From NCBI GenBank assembly GCA_000004985.1, contig GG738860.1: a stretch of 64,000 bases of DNA, one strand, 5' to 3'. The notes under the pieces are model-generated. The model did not search any database, was not told the origin of the DNA, and worked only from the letters and a program-made list of their open reading frames with translations. Both the position numbers and the translations under genes were made by a program. Positions within the stretch are counted from its first letter, which is position 1. Each line of letters opens with the position of its first letter. The stretch comes from Naegleria gruberi. Lineage: Eukaryota. This document shows, one piece after another, positions 21,056-50,015 of the stretch.

Positions 21056-21138
21056 GCCCGCGTAGCAGAGTGGTCAAATGCGTAAGACTTAAGATCTTAT
21101 CCCGAATGGGTTCGTGGGTTCGAACCCCACCGCTGGCA
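21056..21138 (+). tRNA. tRNA-Leu (anticodon UAA), type II with long variable arm
   Basis: GCCCGCG-TA-GCAGAGTGGTCAAATGC-G-TAAGA-CTTAAGA-TCTTA-TCCCGAATGGGTTC-GTGGG-TTCGAAC-CCCAC-CGCTGGC-A. Anticodon stem TAAGA/TCTTA is perfect and the loop CTTAAGA gives anticodon TAA. T-arm GTGGG/TTCGAAC/CCCAC is perfect. Near-identical to vertebrate tRNA-Leu-TAA in the D-loop, anticodon and T-arm. The acceptor stem has one C:T mismatch at 4:69. A T6 tract follows 4 nt after the discriminator. Confidence 0.8.
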
Positions 21139-42515: not shown

Positions 42516-44107
42516 ATGATTAAAAGTAAAAGTTTAATTTCTAGTGTTCGGAACTTTAACCATCAATTTAGAGTGAAGGGATTAATTAATTCATGTTTGA
42601 AAATTAATGCAAATTTTAATAGTCAACACGAATCAACCTTCCGATTTTTTTCTTCATCATCAATGAATAGAAATCGAAATGATGATTTTCTTTACATATT
42701 GAAAATTAGAGGACAAGAACAACCAAATAATTGTGATTCTTTGAGAAAGTTTCCAACTCTTTATTTGGTGGTTGCCCTTTTGGTAGCTGGCTATTCCTAT
42801 TCAATTATTTCATCCCTTCTTTCGTGTAAGTAAATCACCCATATTCTCTGAAAATTCACACAACAAATAAGCTGATATGGTTTTGGATAAGATGATTCAG
42901 GAAGAGAATGGAGAAATTAATTTACAAAAGGCCTCTATCATGCCACTCAGTTGTAAGTTATTACTTGTAATATTTTGTAATCATTTAATGGAATTTTATA
43001 GTATTTGCCCTGTTGAAAATTAAAGAAAAGTATATGGGCAATATTGAGAAAGATCTCGAGTCAAACGATGCAATTAAGAGAAGGAATGCCATTCAAATGA
43101 TTTATCAAATGTGTTTGGATAGATCATTGGCTAAATCAATAATTTTGGAAACTAATTGTCTTGAACGTTTGGTAAATCTGGTACCATACGATAAACAATC
43201 AAACGTATCAAGAGATGAGAGTGACCTAATTATTGGAGTTTTGAAAATGATGAGCTCTATTGAAAATACTCACGAATTCTTATTGGATAATCTTAGTAAA
43301 TGGGTTAAACCATATAGAATACGAAAGGAGTTGCACTCTATAGAGGCATTGGATAATAATTATATTACAATTATATACAATATTCTATCTACACAAAAAT
43401 CCAGACAATTATTAACTGACGAAAGGATTGAGAAACTAATTCAATTGACATTTGAAATATCCAAGGCAAGCACAGATAAGAGAGTGATAAACTTGGCAAA
43501 TTATTCCACTGAAATGCTTGTTAGACAATCTAAGGGAGAACCAGATGATGGTCAAGCAGATTCACTCATGAAAGATTATACTGAAAAGTATGAAATTTTC
43601 AAATTCCTTTCAAACAACATCTCACTTCCATTGCTAGCCTTTGGTTATGCCTTTTTGAGATATAAATGGAGAATTAATAGACAAGGATACAATCATTTTG
43701 GATTCAAGGCTCAAAATCTCAATACACTGTCAATTTACAACTCGTTGAAGAGTGCAGTGGTTGTAAGTGCAATGGCATGGTCTGTAACTTCTTTGGATTT
43801 TTTCGAGTATAGACAGGGGTTGAAAGATCACTCTAATTGCTCAACCAATGAGGAGCTATTTAACAGACTCAAGACTAGGGCATATAGACAGGAAGTTGAA
43901 AAGGTAGCTCAAAACTTCTTGTTCCCATTATTCTTGGCATGGGTTTTGGGTAGAGTGGAATTTATCATACTACCATACATTTTACTTCAGGCAAGCAGTT
44001 CATCTAAACCAAGTAGTTTATTAGAAAATTTAATAGATCTTCCCCCTCAGTATGTAGAATCTCAATTGAATTATATTCAAACAAGCATTGAGACTGAAAA
44101 GAAATAA
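42516..44107 (+). CDS. Multi-pass membrane protein of unknown function; 3 exons
   Basis: Exons about 42516..42825, 42872..42952 and 43002..44107, with GTAAGT donors and introns of 46 and 49 nt. All exons are phase 1 and consistent with ORF 43013... The true start may be a downstream Met (MNRNRNDD... at about 42663), because the first ATG lies only 30 nt from the divergent gene's start. Hydrophobic helices include TLYLVVALLVAGYSYSIISSLL, LPLLAFGYAFLRYKW, AVVVSAMAWSVTSL and FLFPLFLAWVLGRVEFIILPYILL. Confidence 0.5.
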
Positions 44108-44112
44108 ACCCT

Positions 44113-45696
44113 TTACCATTCATCATCTGAATCAGTATCAGAATCCTCTTCGTCATGGATACCAGTGTTAGAGAACTTTTTCATGAGATATGACTTGAAA
44201 CCTTCCTTTTCATTTTCTGTAAAATCAGTTACAGGTGGAGGTGTTGGATTCTTCAAATTGTCCTTAGAGAAAGTCTTGATTTCAGAAAGGAAGTCAGCAG
44301 GCTTTGATGGAAGAGGTGGCTTTGAGACTGGAGGGGAGGTTGGAGTGGCCTTTGGTTTGACCTCAACCTTAATTGGACCTCCTCCCATTGGTGGTGGTGG
44401 TGGAATAGCTCCAACAGGAGGTGGTGGTGGAATAGATCCTCCCATTGGGGGTGGTGGTGGTACAGCAAAACTTCCTCCTCCCATAGGTGGTGGTGGTGGT
44501 GGAATAGATCCCATTGAAACTGGTGGTGGAGGTGGAATACTACCTGCTCCTCCATCATAGTCATCTGAAACATATGAAGTCATTGGTGGAGGTGGTGGAA
44601 CTGATCCTCCCATTGGTGGAGGTGGAGGAACAGATCCCATAGATACAGGCATAGGTGGAGGTGGAGGAACACCACTGGATGGTGAAGAAACTCCAAAAGG
44701 TGGTGGAGGAGGTGGAACTCTTCCTGAAGATGCATCACTAGAGACTGTTCTAATCTCATCAACAATTTGATTGTCATCTTCATGTGCCTTTTGTCTTTGT
44801 TTGGCAACTTTCTTTTCATACTTGTGCATGAGTTTTTGGAGACGTTCTTGAGTCTTTGGATCATTAGCTTCAACACCCATACCTCCCAAAACGTCCAAGT
44901 ATTCAGTTGGAAGACCGCTAGCTTCAAATTGGCCAGTTTCATGATTGATACCAACGTGAGCAGTGTTTTGGAAATTCTTTACAGAGCCCATTCTAAAGTT
45001 TGATCTTGAAGGTCTATTGTCAACTGGTTCTTCGACTGGTTTGACTTCTTCCTTCTTCAAGAACTTATCCTTGACACCTCTAAAGAAACCAAAGACACCA
45101 CCTGCTGCCTTTTCTTCCTTCTTTGGTACAGGACTACTTGGAGAAGATGTTTGAGGGAGTGGATTCTTTGGCTTGTCATTGGATGGCTTACTGATTGATT
45201 CAGGAAGTGGTGGTGGATTACTTGTTGCATTTGATGATACACTAGTTGGTGGAGAAGCAGAGACAACATTAGAGAGACGGTTGTTAACAAAGCTGCTAAA
45301 CTTTGAAGCAGCAGTCTTACTATTCAAGGCAACATTGATACCAACAATTCTATCATCGCTTTCAAAGGAAATAAAATTGTCATTCAATTGTTCAAATTGG
45401 AATTGTTCATAACATTCATGAGACCAAGTAACTTGATTGGTTTCAACATTGATTAGTTTCAAACAAAAGACATTGTTCATCAAATCCTTTCCGAAATAAA
45501 GGGCTCCCCAAATACCAGTATAAGACCATTCTTCTTCACCTTGCATACTTTCATAGATTGAAACAACAGCGCTTTGTTCAACACTCTTTTAAAAATATTA
45601 AGCGAATGATAATTTTATAAATCAACCTACCAAACCCTTAGTGGCAGTGAGAACAACACTAACGTCCAAAGGATCATATAATTCCTTATTGCTCAT
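44113..45696 (-). CDS. WASP-family actin nucleation-promoting factor (WH1/EVH1 - basic - CRIB/GBD - polyproline - WH2 - acidic); 2 exons
   Basis: Exon 1 45696..45631 ([22 protein letters not shown] | GTAGGT), 45-nt intron, exon 2 45585..44113. WH1: ...[61 protein letters not shown]...[60 protein letters not shown]. Nine PPPPP(P)M/V runs. WH2-like [19 protein letters not shown]-terminal acidic tail [13 protein letters not shown]. Confidence 0.85.
44320..44700 (-). repeat. Coding polyproline repeat array (PPPPP(P)-M/V-GGS/SMGS units) inside the WASP gene
   Basis: At least 9 iterations of (cca cct cc)n on the coding strand. Seen on the + strand as ggtgg(t/a)gg(t/a)gg(a/t)... repeats. Confidence 0.8.
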
Positions 45697-45963: not shown

Positions 45964-47549
45964 ATGAGCAACAGCCAACGAAAAAGTAAGCAATCAACAG
46001 CAGCAGCAGCTCCTCATCAGAAGCTTCTTCATCACAACAGCAACGGGATGAAAGTCTACTATTGTTAGCCTACGAGGGTGAGAATATGAAACGATATCCA
46101 ACAAGAAGAGCATCACAATTAGCAAATGAAGCCTTGGAAATTGATAAGACAGATGATGAAGGTTTGTTTTTTCATCAATTAGGAAATTAAATTGAAACTC
46201 TAATAGATTATATTGACGAGGAAGCAGCTTCATCTAGTGATTCCTTTGATGATGAGGAAACTCTTGAAGCTGACTATGAAAGTGATTCAGATTCACAGAA
46301 AGAAAAACCATCATCTAAACGTAAGTCACTCTGTCAAAATATCAATCAATATTAATTTCATTCGTTTACCTTATTAACAACAGGTTCTCAAATATCAAAA
46401 CCTGCTAGACATGTATTAATGTCATGGTTGGAGGAACACTTTGAGCATCCCTATCCTGATGATAACCAAAAAGAAGAATTGATGAAAAAGACCGGTCTCA
46501 CCATTAATCAAATTAATATTTGGTTTGTAAATTCAAGAATGAGAGTGTGGAAGCCTAGGCATCACGATTCACAAATTACCAAGACTGAACCAAATTCACC
46601 AAATGGAAATTCTGATGGTTCAGGAAGTAAGCCAAGACAAGAGAAGAAAATAGACATGTTGAATGATGAATTGAAATCATCACTTGCAGCTCGAATTAAT
46701 CCAAACAATGCCAATGTTACCAGGACAAATATTGTGGGAAGTTTGCCTAATGGTCTACCAACTCCATCCACAGTCATCTGTAGAGGAAACTTACCTAAAG
46801 AAGCTGTTGATTCATTGCTCAAGTGGTTATTCGATAACTTTAGTCATCCATATCCTTCAGATGCAGAGAAAGATGTATTGGCTGAAGAAACAAATCTTAC
46901 CTTAACACAAGTCAACAATTGGTTCATCAATGCAAGAAGGAGAATATGGAAACCAATTCTCCAAAAAATCAAATCAAAGGGAATGGATAAAGATGAACTC
47001 CTTTCTCAAGGAAAACTATCAGAAGTTGCCAAATCATTCTATAAGGACCAGAAAATTGGGGAAGAGGAACCAACAAAGAGGAAATCTAAAAGCTCCAAAG
47101 GAGGTTACAGCTCAGATCATGAAGAATCCACACCTAAAAAGCAAAAGAGGGACAACTCTCTCCTCATACCTCAAGACCTGATGACCCATACAGAGCCAAC
47201 CATTACAAGAGAATCAACGATCAAAACTAGACCAAAAATTGAAAATAACAAATTAACTCATAGAGAGCTATTCATTGATCAATACAGACTCTCAATGGAG
47301 AATCAAAAGCTTGAGGAAGATATTCATCAAGTCTATGACAGGTATGCCTCAGTTTTGGAAAATATCAGTGAAAAGAATGTGAAACTTCTCTCCCACATTA
47401 CCCTCCTCGAACAAAAGCAACAACAAATAAGATTGAATAATGAACTCTTGAAGAAAGAGGTTGATTTATTGAGAAGTAGTAAGGTGGTGAATTCTAATCC
47501 TTTCAACGTGGGTTCATTCCTCGTGGAAGAATTAGGATCTTCAATGTAA
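45964..47549 (+). CDS. Protein with two tandem TALE-class homeodomains plus a C-terminal coiled coil; 3-4 exons
   Basis: Exons: (optional 45964..45985), 46086..46161, 46207..46320, 46384..47549, all phase 1 with GT..AG introns of 45-63 nt. HD1 is ARHVLMSWLEEHFEHPYPDDNQKEELMKKTGLTINQINIWFVNSRMRVWKP. HD2 is KEAVDSLLKWLFDNFSHPYPSDAEKDVLAEETNLTLTQVNNWFINARRRIWKP. Both have the three-residue TALE insertion (H-P-Y-P) and the WF-x-N-x-R helix 3. Confidence 0.75.
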
Positions 47550-47554
47550 ATTAT

Positions 47555-48268
47555 TTACAAATTTCTGCATGCAGTGACAACATCAGGATGATGCTCAAGG
47601 TAGTACTTTGAAGCAAAATCAATAAACTCACTTGTTGAACCAATTTCTTGATAGTTGTCACCATTTTCTAGAATGATATATGGTGACAAGAATTGTTGTG
47701 ACCATTTACTCCACACAGATTTAAATGGTTTGACAATCCACGAGCTATCAGTATCAATTTTACTCTTCAAATCTAAGACAGCATTGTAGAATTGTTCATG
47801 GTTTGGGTGTGATTGATAATTATTGGTTACTTTTGGTGAATAGTTTGGTAACTTTTCAGCAATACACTTGGCAATATTAAAGCTCTTGAAGCTATCTTGG
47901 TTTTCTGTATTTACATCTGCAATAATGTGAAAGATAGATTTACTGTTTGCCAATCTATCAGTCAGATATTTATCTTTTCCGAGATGACTATAAAATTCCT
48001 TTCTCTTGTAGAGGATAGATGGATTACTAAGTGATCGTTTGATGATGAGTTGATAAAAGATTATTTGAATAACAACGATCGCCAGAATAATCGATAGTTT
48101 AAATGTTCTGGATGAATTCCACAAATTATCCAATAAGCGGCTGAGAGGAGGAAGTGGTTTTTCCTTGTTGCTATTTGATAATGTTGCTGATTTTGAATAT
48201 GACGATTCCGAGAGGGGAATATCAGCAGAGTGAAGATGTGATCGTGAGTGTGTTTGTGGCAGAGTCAT
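47555..48268 (-). CDS. Hypothetical single-TM protein (237 aa)
   Basis: ORF with a hydrophobic segment FKLSIILAIVVIQIIFYQLII near residues 55-77 and no recognisable catalytic motif. Its stop codon is 5 nt from the stop of the convergent homeobox gene. Confidence 0.45.
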   Translation of the reverse strand: MTLPQTHSRSHLHSADIPLSESSYSKSATLSNSNKEKPLPPLSRLLDNLWNSSRTFKLSIILAIVVIQIIFYQLIIKRSLSNPSILYKRKEFYSHLGKDKYLTDRLANSKSIFHIIADVNTENQDSFKSFNIAKCIAEKLPNYSPKVTNNYQSHPNHEQFYNAVLDLKSKIDTDSSWIVKPFKSVWSKWSQQFLSPYIILENGDNYQEIGSTSEFIDFASKYYLEHHPDVVTACRNL

Positions 48269-48428
48269 TTTATTTATTTGTTTTATTTGTCTTTCTTATT
48301 AGGAGGTCACAACTTCAGTTTACAACATCTTTTTGGAAGCCAACTTGGAGTGATGCTGCAGTTTTTCAATCAACGTTTTCAATCCAGTTCCCATTTGCTG
48401 TTCGTATTGTTGCAAAATTAAGTTGTTG

Positions 48429-50015
48429 TTAACAAATATTTAATATAAATATGTGGTTAATATAAAAGAGGTAAAAGTTATTGAAAGTATGCTTAAAAAA
48501 ACTTACAACTTGATTTTGCAAACTGGAGAGGGCTGCAGGATCACAGTAAATAGCATCATGCTTAATGAGAGAATCTATTGAGACTATGGTTGGTTCATCT
48601 ATCTTTCCAGTTGTTGAAATATTTTCGATATTTCCTACACTGGTTGGGAAAATATCCTTAATGATCTTTTTGAATGAAGGATAAATGATTGTTTCAATGT
48701 AAATTTCTGTTGGTTGCCTAACACAAACACCGGTACACATTTCAAAAAGCAAATATCCAAAAGATTCCAAAATAGTTCTTGCATTATTGTTAAATGAATT
48801 TCTAGCAAAGAGTAAAAATTGATCTTCCAATGAAGTTAGTTTGCAGTGGTAGTGAACTCCATTTTCATTGTTTGATTTTTCAATTAGAATATTCTTGGAT
48901 GAGATGTGAGTGTATTCAAATCCAATTTGTGAAAGAGACTTTAAAGCACAAAGTATTTGTCCACTAAATTGACTAATAATGTCAGGATCCATAGTATTTT
49001 CTCTCCTTAATGTTTCAATAAGTTGAGATAGGGTTCCAACTGTATTATGCGAAAGATTGAAAAGAGAGTAGCACCTTCCTTGTCCCAATGAAAAATCGAT
49101 ATGAGAAACTGGCATAATGTATGGAGATAAATTTCCAATATTTGACATCAATTGAATAAAAGACCTTCTCATTGTGGCGTCATTAATCATTACTACTGAT
49201 TGACTGGAACAATTTGTATAAACCATCAGTCCAAAGTTGACTCCCACTGCTGTATTTGATTGTGATGAATTTGATTGTGGTAATGTCACAAAATTAGTAG
49301 AACTGTTAGCACTGTTTGAGCTTGAATTATCATCAAAATGTATATTCTTTGATCCTCTATTCTTAATAGTTTGACAATAAGCTAAGGTTTTGTAAGATGA
49401 AGCATTTAAGGTAAGCAATAATTGAAAGTAACTTGTAACAAAATCTTTCAGAGATTCCTTCTTCTCAATGAGTTCATAATCTGTTGGACGTAAGACGGTT
49501 CTAACTTGATACATTAAATCAATATGACCCAGCACTTTCTTTTGATATAAGCTCACATAATCGGTAATTTGTCTATTCAAATTATTATTCTTATACTTTT
49601 GAATGAGATTTGAAAAACCTTCCTTCAAAATATTTCCACTCGAATCATCTGTTGAAGATTTGTGATGATAATAAGAATTGGACAAGGGAATTGTCTCCTC
49701 ATCATCTGCTTCATTATTAATATTTGATGATTTCACTTTTCTAGTTGAAGAAATTCCAAAAACTTGTAAAACCGATTCCGAATTAATACCCGATTCATAA
49801 TATGAAGCCTCTCTTCTTCTCCTAGTTATTATTCTATAAAGAACCAATCCAACACAGGCAAAAAACACCAACACGACCACAATCATCGAGATGATAAATT
49901 CGGGCTTTAAAATAAATAAAACTTCATCTGTTTCCGCATTAGAAGTTGCCATCGTTGAAGTGGAGTCCACCATTAAGTTATTACTGTTCATTACTTTTAG
50001 AATTTGATCTAACAT
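48429..50015 (-). CDS. Type-I transmembrane protein with a cytoplasmic degenerate protein-kinase-like (pseudokinase) domain (528 aa)
   Basis: TM helix IISMIVVVLVFFACVGLVLY followed by the stop-transfer RRRREA. The C-terminal region has kinase-like subdomains (...HISSKNILIEKSNNENGVHYHCKLTSLEDQ...ESFGYLLFEMCTGVCV...) but no HRD catalytic Asp and no glycine-loop/VAIK motifs. Confidence 0.5.
   Translation of the reverse strand: MLDQILKVMNSNNLMVDSTSTMATSNAETDEVLFILKPEFIISMIVVVLVFFACVGLVLYRIITRRRREASYYESGINSESVLQVFGISSTRKVKSSNINNEADDEETIPLSNSYYHHKSSTDDSSGNILKEGFSNLIQKYKNNNLNRQITDYVSLYQKKVLGHIDLMYQVRTVLRPTDYELIEKKESLKDFVTSYFQLLLTLNASSYKTLAYCQTIKNRGSKNIHFDDNSSSNSANSSTNFVTLPQSNSSQSNTAVGVNFGLMVYTNCSSQSVVMINDATMRRSFIQLMSNIGNLSPYIMPVSHIDFSLGQGRCYSLFNLSHNTVGTLSQLIETLRRENTMDPDIISQFSGQILCALKSLSQIGFEYTHISSKNILIEKSNNENGVHYHCKLTSLEDQFLLFARNSFNNNARTILESFGYLLFEMCTGVCVRQPTEIYIETIIYPSFKKIIKDIFPTSVGNIENISTTGKIDEPTIVSIDSLIKHDAIYCDPAALSSLQNQVVSFFKHTFNNFYLFYINHIFILNIC

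Follow-up and report, generated by a model that had tools for sequence, protein, structure and literature searches.

Two differentiated TALE homeodomains lie in one polypeptide encoded by a nuclear gene of Naegleria gruberi, and sequence comparison dates their presence in a single chain to the base of Heterolobosea. TALE homeodomain proteins are textbook heterodimers, PBX with MEIS in animals and, in plants and algae, KNOX with BELL, a pair whose union marks the zygote. In the reading that we favour, with moderate confidence, the present protein belongs to a TALE family of Heterolobosea and regulates transcription in a sequence-specific manner; its first and second homeodomains (HD1 and HD2) would bind different neighbouring half-sites, and its C-terminal helix would pair chains. 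The TALE dyad has been proposed to date to near the root of eukaryotes (PMC6219170), and the family may be a natural experiment in which composite-site recognition was built without partner domains.

We find a real, single nuclear gene of an AT-rich heterolobosean amoeba, carried by the + strand of the window (the whole stretch of DNA analysed, 64 kb). Its elements are as follows.

46086-46161, 46207-46320 and 46384-47549, + strand: exons of the minimal gene model, 451 aa, with an open spliced translation
46162-46206, + strand: intron of 45 nt (GTTTGT...TAATAG), 22% G+C; splicing restores the frame
46321-46383, + strand: intron of 63 nt (GTAAGT...CAACAG), 27% G+C, interrupting the HD1 N-terminal arm after K-R
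47547-47549, + strand: stop codon TAA, end of the minimal gene model
45964-46085, + strand: 5' end, with ATG 45964 in a different frame; 45% G+C, coding-like

The preliminary description proposed three introns, and the conserved positions of two of them speak for their splicing. An intron homologous to 46162-46206 is present in the N. fowleri gene (between ..KETHE and DDEV..), and 46321-46383 occupies the identical position in N. fowleri (between ..KDKSK(R) and FNIPK..) and in Willaertia magna (between ..ISAK(R) and LHLPK..). The remaining one, the first in order (45986-46068), is doubtful; because its G+C content is 45%, as against 22-27% in the supported introns, it resembles coding DNA. Reading in frame with ATG 46086, the sequence is open upstream as far as a TAA at 45987, and the part ahead of this ATG encodes ...SSSSSSSEASSSQQQRDESLLLLAYEGEN-M, which is weakly collinear with the N. 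fowleri N-terminus. The 5' exon structure is as ambiguous as first described, and three alternatives still stand for 45964-46085: a start at ATG 46086, a start at ATG 45964 followed by a 35-nt intron (45986-46020), or a start at ATG 45964 with a 1-nt frame error within 45990-46011. The only near-identical sequence, a 2.4-kb metagenome contig (L001, 98.96% identity), ends short of this disputed region; its coding sequence differs by 10 substitutions, all of them outside the two homeodomains. Searching the 64 kb window by tblastn revealed no further homeobox, and an Rfam scan of the window returned one tRNA and nothing else.

That the polypeptide holds two complete TALE-class homeodomains is confirmed by their loops, by Pfam and by the predicted fold.

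46308-46559, + strand: homeodomain 1 (residues 60-122), TALE, helix 3 WFVNSRMRVWKP (V50, M54), with the 63-nt intron inside
46770-46958, + strand: homeodomain 2 (residues 193-255), TALE, helix 3 WFINARRRIWKP (I50, R54)

Both have the HPYP loop attributed to them (EHPYPDD in HD1, SHPYPSD in HD2), with P-Y-P starting 24 residues ahead of W48, and the third helices read WFVNSRMR and WFINARRR, as claimed. Scanned separately, each domain matches the full 40-position Pfam model Homeobox_KN (PF05920) on its own, HD1 at 70.3 bits (E 1.2e-19) and HD2 at 77.5 bits (E 6.6e-22), the curated cutoff being 24 bits. The two align gap-free and end to end with the homeodomains of MEIS, PKNOX and TGIF. AlphaFold2 predicts two three-helix homeodomains with pLDDT >90, and Foldseek places both predicted folds on MEIS1 at 0.6-0.7 A rmsd. 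Among solved structures HD1 scores best with MEIS2 (58.8 bits; PBX1, 48.5), and HD2 with PKNOX1 (71 bits), followed by MEIS (70.5), TGIF (62-65) and PBX (43). The distance between the domains, given earlier as about 55 aa, is in fact 70 aa when TALE homeodomains are counted as 63 residues.

Outside the homeodomains the chain contains the following segments.

46137-46298, + strand: acidic disordered N-terminus (residues 18-56), AlphaFold2 pLDDT <50
46560-46691, + strand: variable part of the spacer (residues 123-166), pLDDT <50, predicted disordered
46692-46769, + strand: ultra-conserved 26-aa motif RINPNNANVTRTNIVGSLPNGLPTPS (residues 167-192), directly before the HD2 N-terminal arm
46986-47054, + strand: two short helices after HD2 (about residues 265-291; AlphaFold2 helices 266-271 and 275-291, pLDDT ~95)
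47076-47150, + strand: basic clusters KRK and KKQKR in a disordered region, a sequence pattern
47250-47492, + strand: single helix of 81 residues (353-433), AlphaFold2 pLDDT ~97
47517-47546, + strand: C-terminal tail FLVEELGSSM, of the pattern F-x-(I/V)-(E/Q)-x-L

The stretch ahead of HD1 measures 59 aa in the minimal model, and its residues 18-57 include 19 D/E and 2 K/R; the acidic segment (residues 18-56) is a candidate activation region. Conservation within the spacer is uneven. Among five orthologues about 3% of columns are invariant at residues 125-164, as against 86% at residues 165-193, which is above the values for HD2 (71%) and HD1 (37%). AlphaFold2 leaves the spacer motif disordered and gives HD1 and HD2 no fixed mutual arrangement (pTM 0.32). 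The two-helix segment after HD2 is conserved across the orthologue group, and the basic clusters are candidate nuclear localisation signals by their sequence pattern. As to the leucine-zipper-like coiled coil proposed for the C-terminus, the peptide in question, residues 374-426, lies inside the long predicted helix, but the heptad score does not favour it, since on this crude measure 44% of shuffled sequences reach the observed value. Coiled-coil formation thus rests on the predicted length of the helix and on its conservation, the pattern EN..L...Y...N..L...LE..Q..L..N..L being common to it and to single-homeodomain paralogues, and the helix is a candidate oligomerisation domain. In four orthologues the tail pattern is separated by 4 residues from the C-terminal end, and it occurs in the last 60 residues of 4 of 21 proteins, compared with a maximum of 3 of 21 in 500 shuffles. 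A Groucho-like protein has been reported in Naegleria (PMC4943189), and its recruitment by the F-x-I-E-x-L tail is a further possibility.

Apart from the N-terminal arm of HD1, which is split by an intron, both homeodomains lie inside one uninterrupted open exon, 46384-47549, and it is therefore very unlikely that they belong to separate mRNAs. Could two neighbouring single-homeodomain genes nevertheless have been read as one? Artefact-like multi-homeodomain entries do occur in our survey (P0125, P0143, P0242). Here, on the other hand, a single ORF runs without a stop codon from HD1 to HD2, the best-conserved peptide of the protein sits in the spacer between them, and three annotated genomes, together with one complete transcript ORF, repeat the layout, so that an annotation artefact is exceedingly improbable. 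The gene is the positional orthologue of N. fowleri FDP41_005113 and W. magna ABK040_010370. The intron before HD1 is at the same place in all three genera, and the flanks are conserved as well, with a WH1+PBD gene upstream and a 237-aa ORF downstream, both on the - strand; orthology is supported by these shared intron positions and flanking genes. Identity to the N. fowleri, N. lovaniensis and W. magna proteins is 42-49% over 82-94% of the length, and the collinearity of the heterolobosean double-TALE proteins is full-length: HD1 with V50 and a hydrophobic residue at 54, RINPNNANVTRTNIVGSLPNGLPTPS, HD2 and the C-terminal helix.

The homeodomains, the spacer motif and the C-terminal helix of the present protein all recur in FDP41_005113, N. 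lovaniensis C9374_002403 and ABK040_010370. The tail is found in both Naegleria orthologues and is absent from the annotated W. magna protein, and under the minimal model the N-terminus is shorter here than in all three. They are annotated only as uncharacterised 'homeobox domain-containing proteins', and the searchable literature yielded no experimental study of these orthologues. The eight closest relatives, from N. fowleri, N. lovaniensis, W. magna (two paralogues), Pharyngomonas kirbyi and metagenomes, all have two domains; in P. kirbyi a complete transcript ORF carries both. An exhaustive search added two more, giving at least ten related proteins. The two-domain layout is old and shared with relatives, not a one-off.

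Comparison of the two domains across the family reveals where they differ. When 10 HD1s are set against 21 HD2 or single homeodomains over 63 aligned columns, two positions alone, 50 and 54, have no residue in common between the sets; both lie within recognition helix 3. V50 together with a hydrophobic residue at 54 is found in 10 of 10 HD1s, the family having M, I or V at 54 in place of R; the present HD1 has M54 and I47, whereas position 54 is I or V and position 47 is N or T in its relatives. The HD2 signature (I50, R54) is that of the single homeodomain in 11 heterolobosean-type paralogues. Identity among relatives is 46-63% for HD1 versus 61-90% for HD2. From these comparisons HD2 appears to be the standard domain of the heterolobosean TALE family and HD1 an extra, faster-evolving one. 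Residue 50 of the homeodomain is a base-reading position. Position 54 is the middle Arg of WFINARRR, and in the crystal structure of TGIF1 on DNA this Arg makes hydrogen bonds to bases of TGACA (PMC6158717). A TGACA-like core is the expected target of HD2, which has I50 and R54 as in MEIS/PREP/TGIF. HD1 keeps the DNA-binding residues W48, F49, N51, R53 and R55, with the base-reading R54 replaced by M/I/V and I50 by V. Most probably the two would bind two different neighbouring half-sites, in which case one chain would read a composite site that elsewhere is read by a TALE heterodimer, and the C-terminal helix may pair chains with each other or with the single-homeodomain paralogues that bear the same helix.

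Alternatively, HD1 may have ceased to bind DNA specifically and may serve as a protein-interaction or autoregulatory module, leaving HD2 alone to read DNA. Its lower share of invariant columns among orthologues and the loss of the base-contacting R54 agree with such a role, and in one metagenome relative (P0152) the domain looks degenerate, which suggests that HD1 may be dispensable. Yet W48, F49, N51, R53 and R55 are invariant in 10 of 10 HD1s, most of which keep a basic N-terminal arm, and the homeodomain model scores are strong. Moreover, a hydrophobic residue at 54 does not keep the homeodomains of PBX and BELL from binding DNA. We therefore regard a non-binding HD1 as unlikely, and retain the reading in which both domains contact DNA.

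The preliminary description suggested an intramolecular heterodimer. The idea is consistent with the difference of HD1 and HD2, without exception, at positions 50 and 54; the protein has no MEIS, PBC, KNOX or BELL partner domain and shows no sign of deriving from two TALE classes. A single-chain heterodimer is a plausible but tentative reading. The functional analogy is with the PBX-MEIS/PREP and KNOX-BELL heterodimers, in which two TALE homeodomains with differing residue 54 occupy adjacent half-sites. There the separate chains are joined via N-terminal PBC/MEIS or KNOX/BELL domains, whereas here the link is covalent. The Hox hexapeptide and the MATalpha2 tail lock a partner homeodomain on DNA. 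By analogy, the protein could be an ancient covalent TALE-TALE equivalent, reading different half-sites, in which the spacer motif locks both domains on DNA; the role of the motif is one that we infer, and the proposal as a whole strikes us as tentative and somewhat unlikely. If true, the covalent pair would be a third, previously undescribed way to assemble a TALE pair.

How did the two domains come together? One answer is gene fusion, with HD1 taken from a PBX/BELL-type protein and HD2 from a MEIS/KNOX-type protein, resulting in a single-chain descendant of the ancestral TALE dyad, a permanent heterodimer free of partners. The hydrophobic residue at 54 in HD1 recalls PBX (I54) and BELL (V54 in P0025), just as R54 in HD2 recalls MEIS/PREP/TGIF. 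Metagenomes also contain short proteins whose only helix 3 is of the HD1 type (P0194, P0254, P0261), and in the domain tree HD1 and HD2 stand apart, although the tandem domains cluster with each other in Creolimax, Heterosigma, Thalassiosira and Ancoracysta. The HD1 profile ranks MEIS/PKNOX (89 bits) above PBX/Exd (74) and TGIF (66-71); the order of the latter two, the reverse of that for HD2, would agree with a fusion, but the best score is to MEIS/PKNOX, with PBX reaching just 74. Likewise, HD1 has V50 and not the G50 of PBC, both HD1 and HD2 end in R-x-W-K-P, Pfam finds no PBC, MEIS, KNOX or POX domain in the protein, and bootstrap support for HD1 with any class is absent. In the neighbour-joining tree (58 homeodomains, 300 bootstraps) HD1 monophyly receives 0-3% support; given this lack of resolution, the tree leaves the choice between internal duplication and fusion undecided. 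Searching a large protein collection with the HD1 profile returned only proteins below about 112 aa, for the most part TALE fragments from fungi and animals, and missed the profile's own source proteins. Nothing that we found shows two TALE classes to have fused, and we think such an origin very unlikely.

The protein fits none of the MEIS, PBC, KNOX, BELL, DUX and HD-Zip classes. At E <= 0.01 Pfam detects no family in it besides two homeodomain families. The MEIS/PREP class is rejected because the Meis_PKNOX_N domain (PF16493, MEIS-A/B) is missing at this threshold; the animal proteins matched in the similarity search do carry it. HD2 is 53% identical to MEIS/PREP (PKNOX) over the aligned core and has the same WFINARRR recognition helix as these and TGIF, but MEIS/PREP proteins have MEIS-A/B and lack a second homeodomain and the long C-terminal helix, and the MEIS homeodomain ends in V-Q-P, in contrast to the W-K-P seen here and in plant KNOX/BELL. 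Membership of the PBC (PBX/Exd) class is excluded by the lack of a Pfam PBC domain and by position 50, where HD1 has V and HD2 has I in place of G50. As for KNOX/BELL, Pfam gives no match to KNOX1/KNOX2/ELK or POX (PF07526), and the N-terminus is short, acidic and predicted disordered. In HD-Zip proteins the homeodomain is not of TALE type and a leucine zipper follows it directly on the C-terminal side, whereas here the long helix begins 97 residues past HD2 and the homeodomains are of TALE type. The PRD-class DUX proteins are likewise set aside, given that both present domains are of TALE type and that DUX4 chains match at 25-37 bits only. The DUX4 linker is about 15 aa, versus the 70 aa spacer of the heterolobosean protein. 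The PDB search gave no two-domain structural match other than DUX4 (PDB 6E8C, 5Z6Z), whose tandem homeodomains jointly recognise a single composite site on DNA; its homeodomains are 60-residue PRD-class domains without the TALE loop, and superposition at 16-20 A rmsd implies that no comparable domain arrangement is predicted.

Tandem TALE homeodomains were at first taken as an exception to a one-homeodomain rule. This view does not hold, as the layout is conserved in at least ten relatives and also occurs in spiralians and in many other protists. Spiralian TALE-IV/SPILE-B genes encode two TALE homeodomains per chain (PMC6118893, PMC8524836), and a 2018 paper called the multi-homeobox state new for the TALE class (PMC6118893). 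The likeness to the present protein lies in the TALE class and in two homeodomains in one chain. By description, on which we set them apart, the spiralian proteins belong to a clade restricted to animals and carry a modified PADRE domain; features of the heterolobosean proteins are the HD1 with V50 and hydrophobic 54, the invariant spacer motif and the C-terminal helix. No relationship to SPILE was detected beyond the TALE class, and no SPILE protein is among the closest 120 matches. Our survey also found the tandem layout in Creolimax, Chromosphaera, Heterosigma, an oomycete, a diatom and Ancoracysta, which by sequence points to repeated origins of tandem TALE proteins among protists. In N. 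gruberi 12 homeobox genes have been found, every one of the TALE type, including the PBC-like 78561 and the MEIS/KNOX-like 79931 (PMC6219170). In the literature we found no description of tandem TALE proteins of Naegleria or Heterolobosea, and a paper on brown-alga TALE proteins does not mention two-domain proteins. Because its layout is old and common to its relatives, the gene is a modest curiosity and not an oddity, an ordinary conserved transcription-factor gene with annotated orthologues. For Naegleria biology the family adds a handful of candidate regulators and a clear prediction, that HD1 and HD2 differ in specificity. Errors of assembly or prediction appear to account for some multi-homeodomain entries in the survey, such as P0125, P0143 and P0242, whose repeated homeodomains are identical.

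A TALE chain with two differentiated homeodomains is a real, ancient and conserved feature of a protein family with annotated orthologues. The 451-aa protein has two Pfam matches, both to Homeobox_KN, and each homeodomain scanned alone passes the 24-bit cutoff of that family, HD1 at 70.3 and HD2 at 77.5 bits. The two tandem TALE homeodomains of the preliminary description are thereby confirmed, with small corrections, and its interpretation is supported in part; binding of a composite site and an origin by fusion are hypotheses. The Pfam scan of the protein matched no other family, the MEIS, PBC, KNOX and BELL partner domains included, and no further homeobox was found anywhere in the 64-kb window. 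The spacer between the domains, earlier put at about 55 aa, measures 70 aa when 63-residue TALE domain boundaries are used. The features of the gene and its neighbours are as follows.

44113-45546, - strand: WH1+PBD (WASP-like) gene, conserved upstream neighbour
46086-46161 and 46207-46320, + strand: two short upstream exons, joined in frame to the 46384-47549 exon
46384-47549, + strand: open exon with both homeodomains inside
Introns of 45 nt (GTTTGT...TAG) and 63 nt (GTAAGT...CAG), + strand: reading frame kept after splicing
46308-46559, + strand: HD1, 63-residue TALE domain, residues 60-122, split by the second intron
46692-46769, + strand: 26-aa spacer motif RINPNNANVTRTNIVGSLPNGLPTPS, residues 167-192, directly before the HD2 N-terminal arm
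46770-46958, + strand: HD2, 63-residue TALE domain, residues 193-255
47517-47546, + strand: C-terminal tail FLVEELGSSM, pattern F-x-(I/V)-(E/Q)-x-L
47555-48268, - strand: 237-aa ORF, downstream neighbour, also adjoining the N. fowleri and W. magna genes

The best full-length matches, all uncharacterised, are N. fowleri FDP41_005113, N. lovaniensis C9374_002403, W. magna ABK040_010370 and one metagenome protein, each with 42-49% identity across 82-94% of the query. Judged from these matches and the conserved neighbours, the window gene is the positional orthologue of the N. fowleri and W. magna genes. Genes are densely spaced in the window, whose G+C content is 26.6%. Of the three introns proposed previously, the 45-nt and 63-nt introns are upheld by comparison, because the N. 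fowleri gene has introns at homologous places (..KETHE|DDEV.. and ..KDKSK(R)|FNIPK..) and the W. magna gene shares the second (..ISAK(R)|LHLPK..). The first, 45986-46068, is doubtful, since its G+C content is 45% whereas that of the two supported introns is 22-27%. Three readings of the 5' end remain: a start at ATG 46086, whose frame is open upstream as far as a TAA at 45987 and encodes ...SSSSSSSEASSSQQQRDESLLLLAYEGEN, weakly collinear with the N. fowleri N-terminus (...KRDESHLLL...); ATG 45964 with a 35-nt intron that ends at 46020; or ATG 45964 with a 1-nt error somewhere in 45990-46011. The homeodomains are unaffected under all three. The stretch 45964-46085, upstream of ATG 46086 and in the same frame, is coding-like (45% G+C) but lacks an in-frame ATG; a 1-nt assembly error, a 35-nt intron or a non-standard start could explain it. 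A metagenome contig with 98.96% identity to the window across 46104-48493 stops short of this disputed region; within the coding sequence it carries 10 substitutions, four synonymous and six not, none in either homeodomain.

How old is the two-domain layout? Two TALE homeodomains are present in each of the eight closest relatives, among them a second W. magna paralogue, one JGI protein and Pharyngomonas kirbyi GECH01004741.1, a complete transcript ORF with both domains; the next 11, of which three are from Acrasis kona and one is from N. fowleri, have one homeodomain each. If Pharyngomonas is the earliest-branching heterolobosean lineage, the layout goes back to the root of Heterolobosea, where it is backed by a transcript. 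When 1.84 billion representatives were searched exhaustively and without a profile, two proteins of the same double-TALE type, P0123 and P0126, were added, together with many unrelated proteins with several TALE homeodomains, a few of which resemble prediction artefacts.

TALE homeodomains per protein in other lineages
Creolimax fragrantissima, ichthyosporean: 3
Chromosphaera perkinsii, ichthyosporean: 4
Heterosigma akashiwo, raphidophyte: 2
Thraustotheca clavata, oomycete: 2
MAST (GSMAST32 assembly), stramenopile: 2
Ancoracysta twista: 2
Thalassiosira exigua, diatom: 2

Tandem TALE proteins are not unique to the heterolobosean family. The tandem domains of the other lineages pair with each other in the domain tree, which suggests independent duplications. 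Chains with three to six or more TALE-like homeodomains were also recorded in other eukaryotes (P0121, P0122, P0124, P0127, P0129, P0130); P0124 is from Creolimax, P0129 from Chromosphaera, and P0121, from a metagenome, has at least six. Two-homeodomain TALE genes have been reported for spiralians (PMC6118893, PMC8524836), the multi-homeodomain state being described in 2018 as not previously seen in the TALE class (PMC6118893). A survey of N. gruberi lists 12 homeobox genes, all TALE, and does not mention the two-domain layout (PMC6219170).

The single-homeodomain paralogues have essentially the same domain as HD2 (...LTQVNNWFINARRR(I/V/L)W(K/R)P). HD1 is more variable among relatives (46-63% identity versus 61-90% for HD2). 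All ten HD1s keep W48, F49, N51, R53 and R55. When they are compared with 21 HD2 or single homeodomains, only two of 63 columns are completely disjoint: position 50, V in HD1s and I in the others, and position 54, V, I or M in HD1s and R in the others. PBX has I54, and the BELL protein in the compared set has V54. The TGIF1-DNA structure shows position 54, the middle arginine of WFINARRR, hydrogen-bonded to bases of the TGACA core (PMC6158717), so the fixed difference sits where specificity is set. It is the best evidence that HD1 and HD2 would read different sequences. Against solved structures HD1 scores 58.8 bits with MEIS2, 48.5 with PBX1 and 33-37 with TGIF, and HD2 71 with PKNOX1, 70.5 with MEIS, 62-65 with TGIF and 43 with PBX; profile scores for HD1 are 89 (MEIS), 74 (PBX/Exd) and 66-71 bits (TGIF). 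By these scores HD1 is less MEIS-like than HD2, yet never closest to PBX. Both domains share an R-x-W-K-P ending, and the neighbour-joining domain tree has no supported node bearing on duplication versus fusion. P0152, a JGI metagenome entry that ends inside HD2, has the PSTVICRGNLPK arm, a normal HD2 start and a degenerate HD1 (..QISSFMDNARAQLWKN), which points to HD1 decay being possible in some lineages.

No part of the protein is better conserved than the spacer motif, with 86% invariant columns across five orthologues (over residues 165-193), compared with 71% for HD2 and 37% for HD1. It is nearly invariant in the window organism, two Naegleria species, Willaertia and one metagenome relative, and is predicted to be disordered despite this conservation. 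We can only guess that it contacts the DNA minor groove or docks on HD1 or a cofactor. The 98.96%-identical metagenome contig has V->L at codon 175, within the motif. In four orthologues the tail pattern is found four residues from the C-terminus, and three paralogues have similar motifs after the long C-terminal helix; the tail was recorded in the window protein and in proteins P0007, P0011 and P0018. Its likeness to the eh1 Groucho-binding motif is loose and a lead only; N. gruberi has a reported Groucho-like gene, but eh1 motifs were not found in its transcription factors (PMC4943189).

AlphaFold2, run on a 19-sequence alignment (mean pLDDT 68.6, pTM 0.32), places both homeodomains above pLDDT 90, adds two helices after HD2 (266-271 and 275-291) and predicts disorder in the N-terminus, the entire spacer and residues 293-350. 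In Foldseek, single domains match MEIS1 and TGIF1, and for the HD1-HD2 pair DUX4 is the only match, with an rmsd of 16-20 A, so that no inter-domain arrangement is predicted. At the C-terminus, where a leucine-zipper-like coiled coil had been proposed, AlphaFold2 predicts a single 81-residue helix (353-433, pLDDT about 97); its heptad statistic is not significant. Because single-homeodomain paralogues have the same sequence pattern, the helix is plausibly a common oligomerisation module.

The WASP-like gene (WH1, PBD, long polyproline runs) appears to have an extra first exon from ATG 45696, with a 45-nt in-frame intron (GTAGGT...AAAAG), and would then span 44113-45696 on the - strand, leaving about 267 nt as a divergent promoter region shared with the TALE gene. 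Two pairs of convergent genes are separated by gaps of only 5 nt: in one, the stop codons end at 47549 (+, the TALE gene) and start at 47555 (-), and the other pair lies at 44107 (+) and 44113 (-). The 3' untranslated region of each gene must therefore run into coding sequence of its neighbour; the N. fowleri locus is packed in the same tight way. The only indel between the metagenome contig and the window over 2.4 kb is an 8-nt intergenic insertion (GCGCCAAA) at 48283-48284, between two - strand genes. The sole Rfam match in the window is a tRNA-Leu (anticodon TAA) at 21056-21138 on the + strand.
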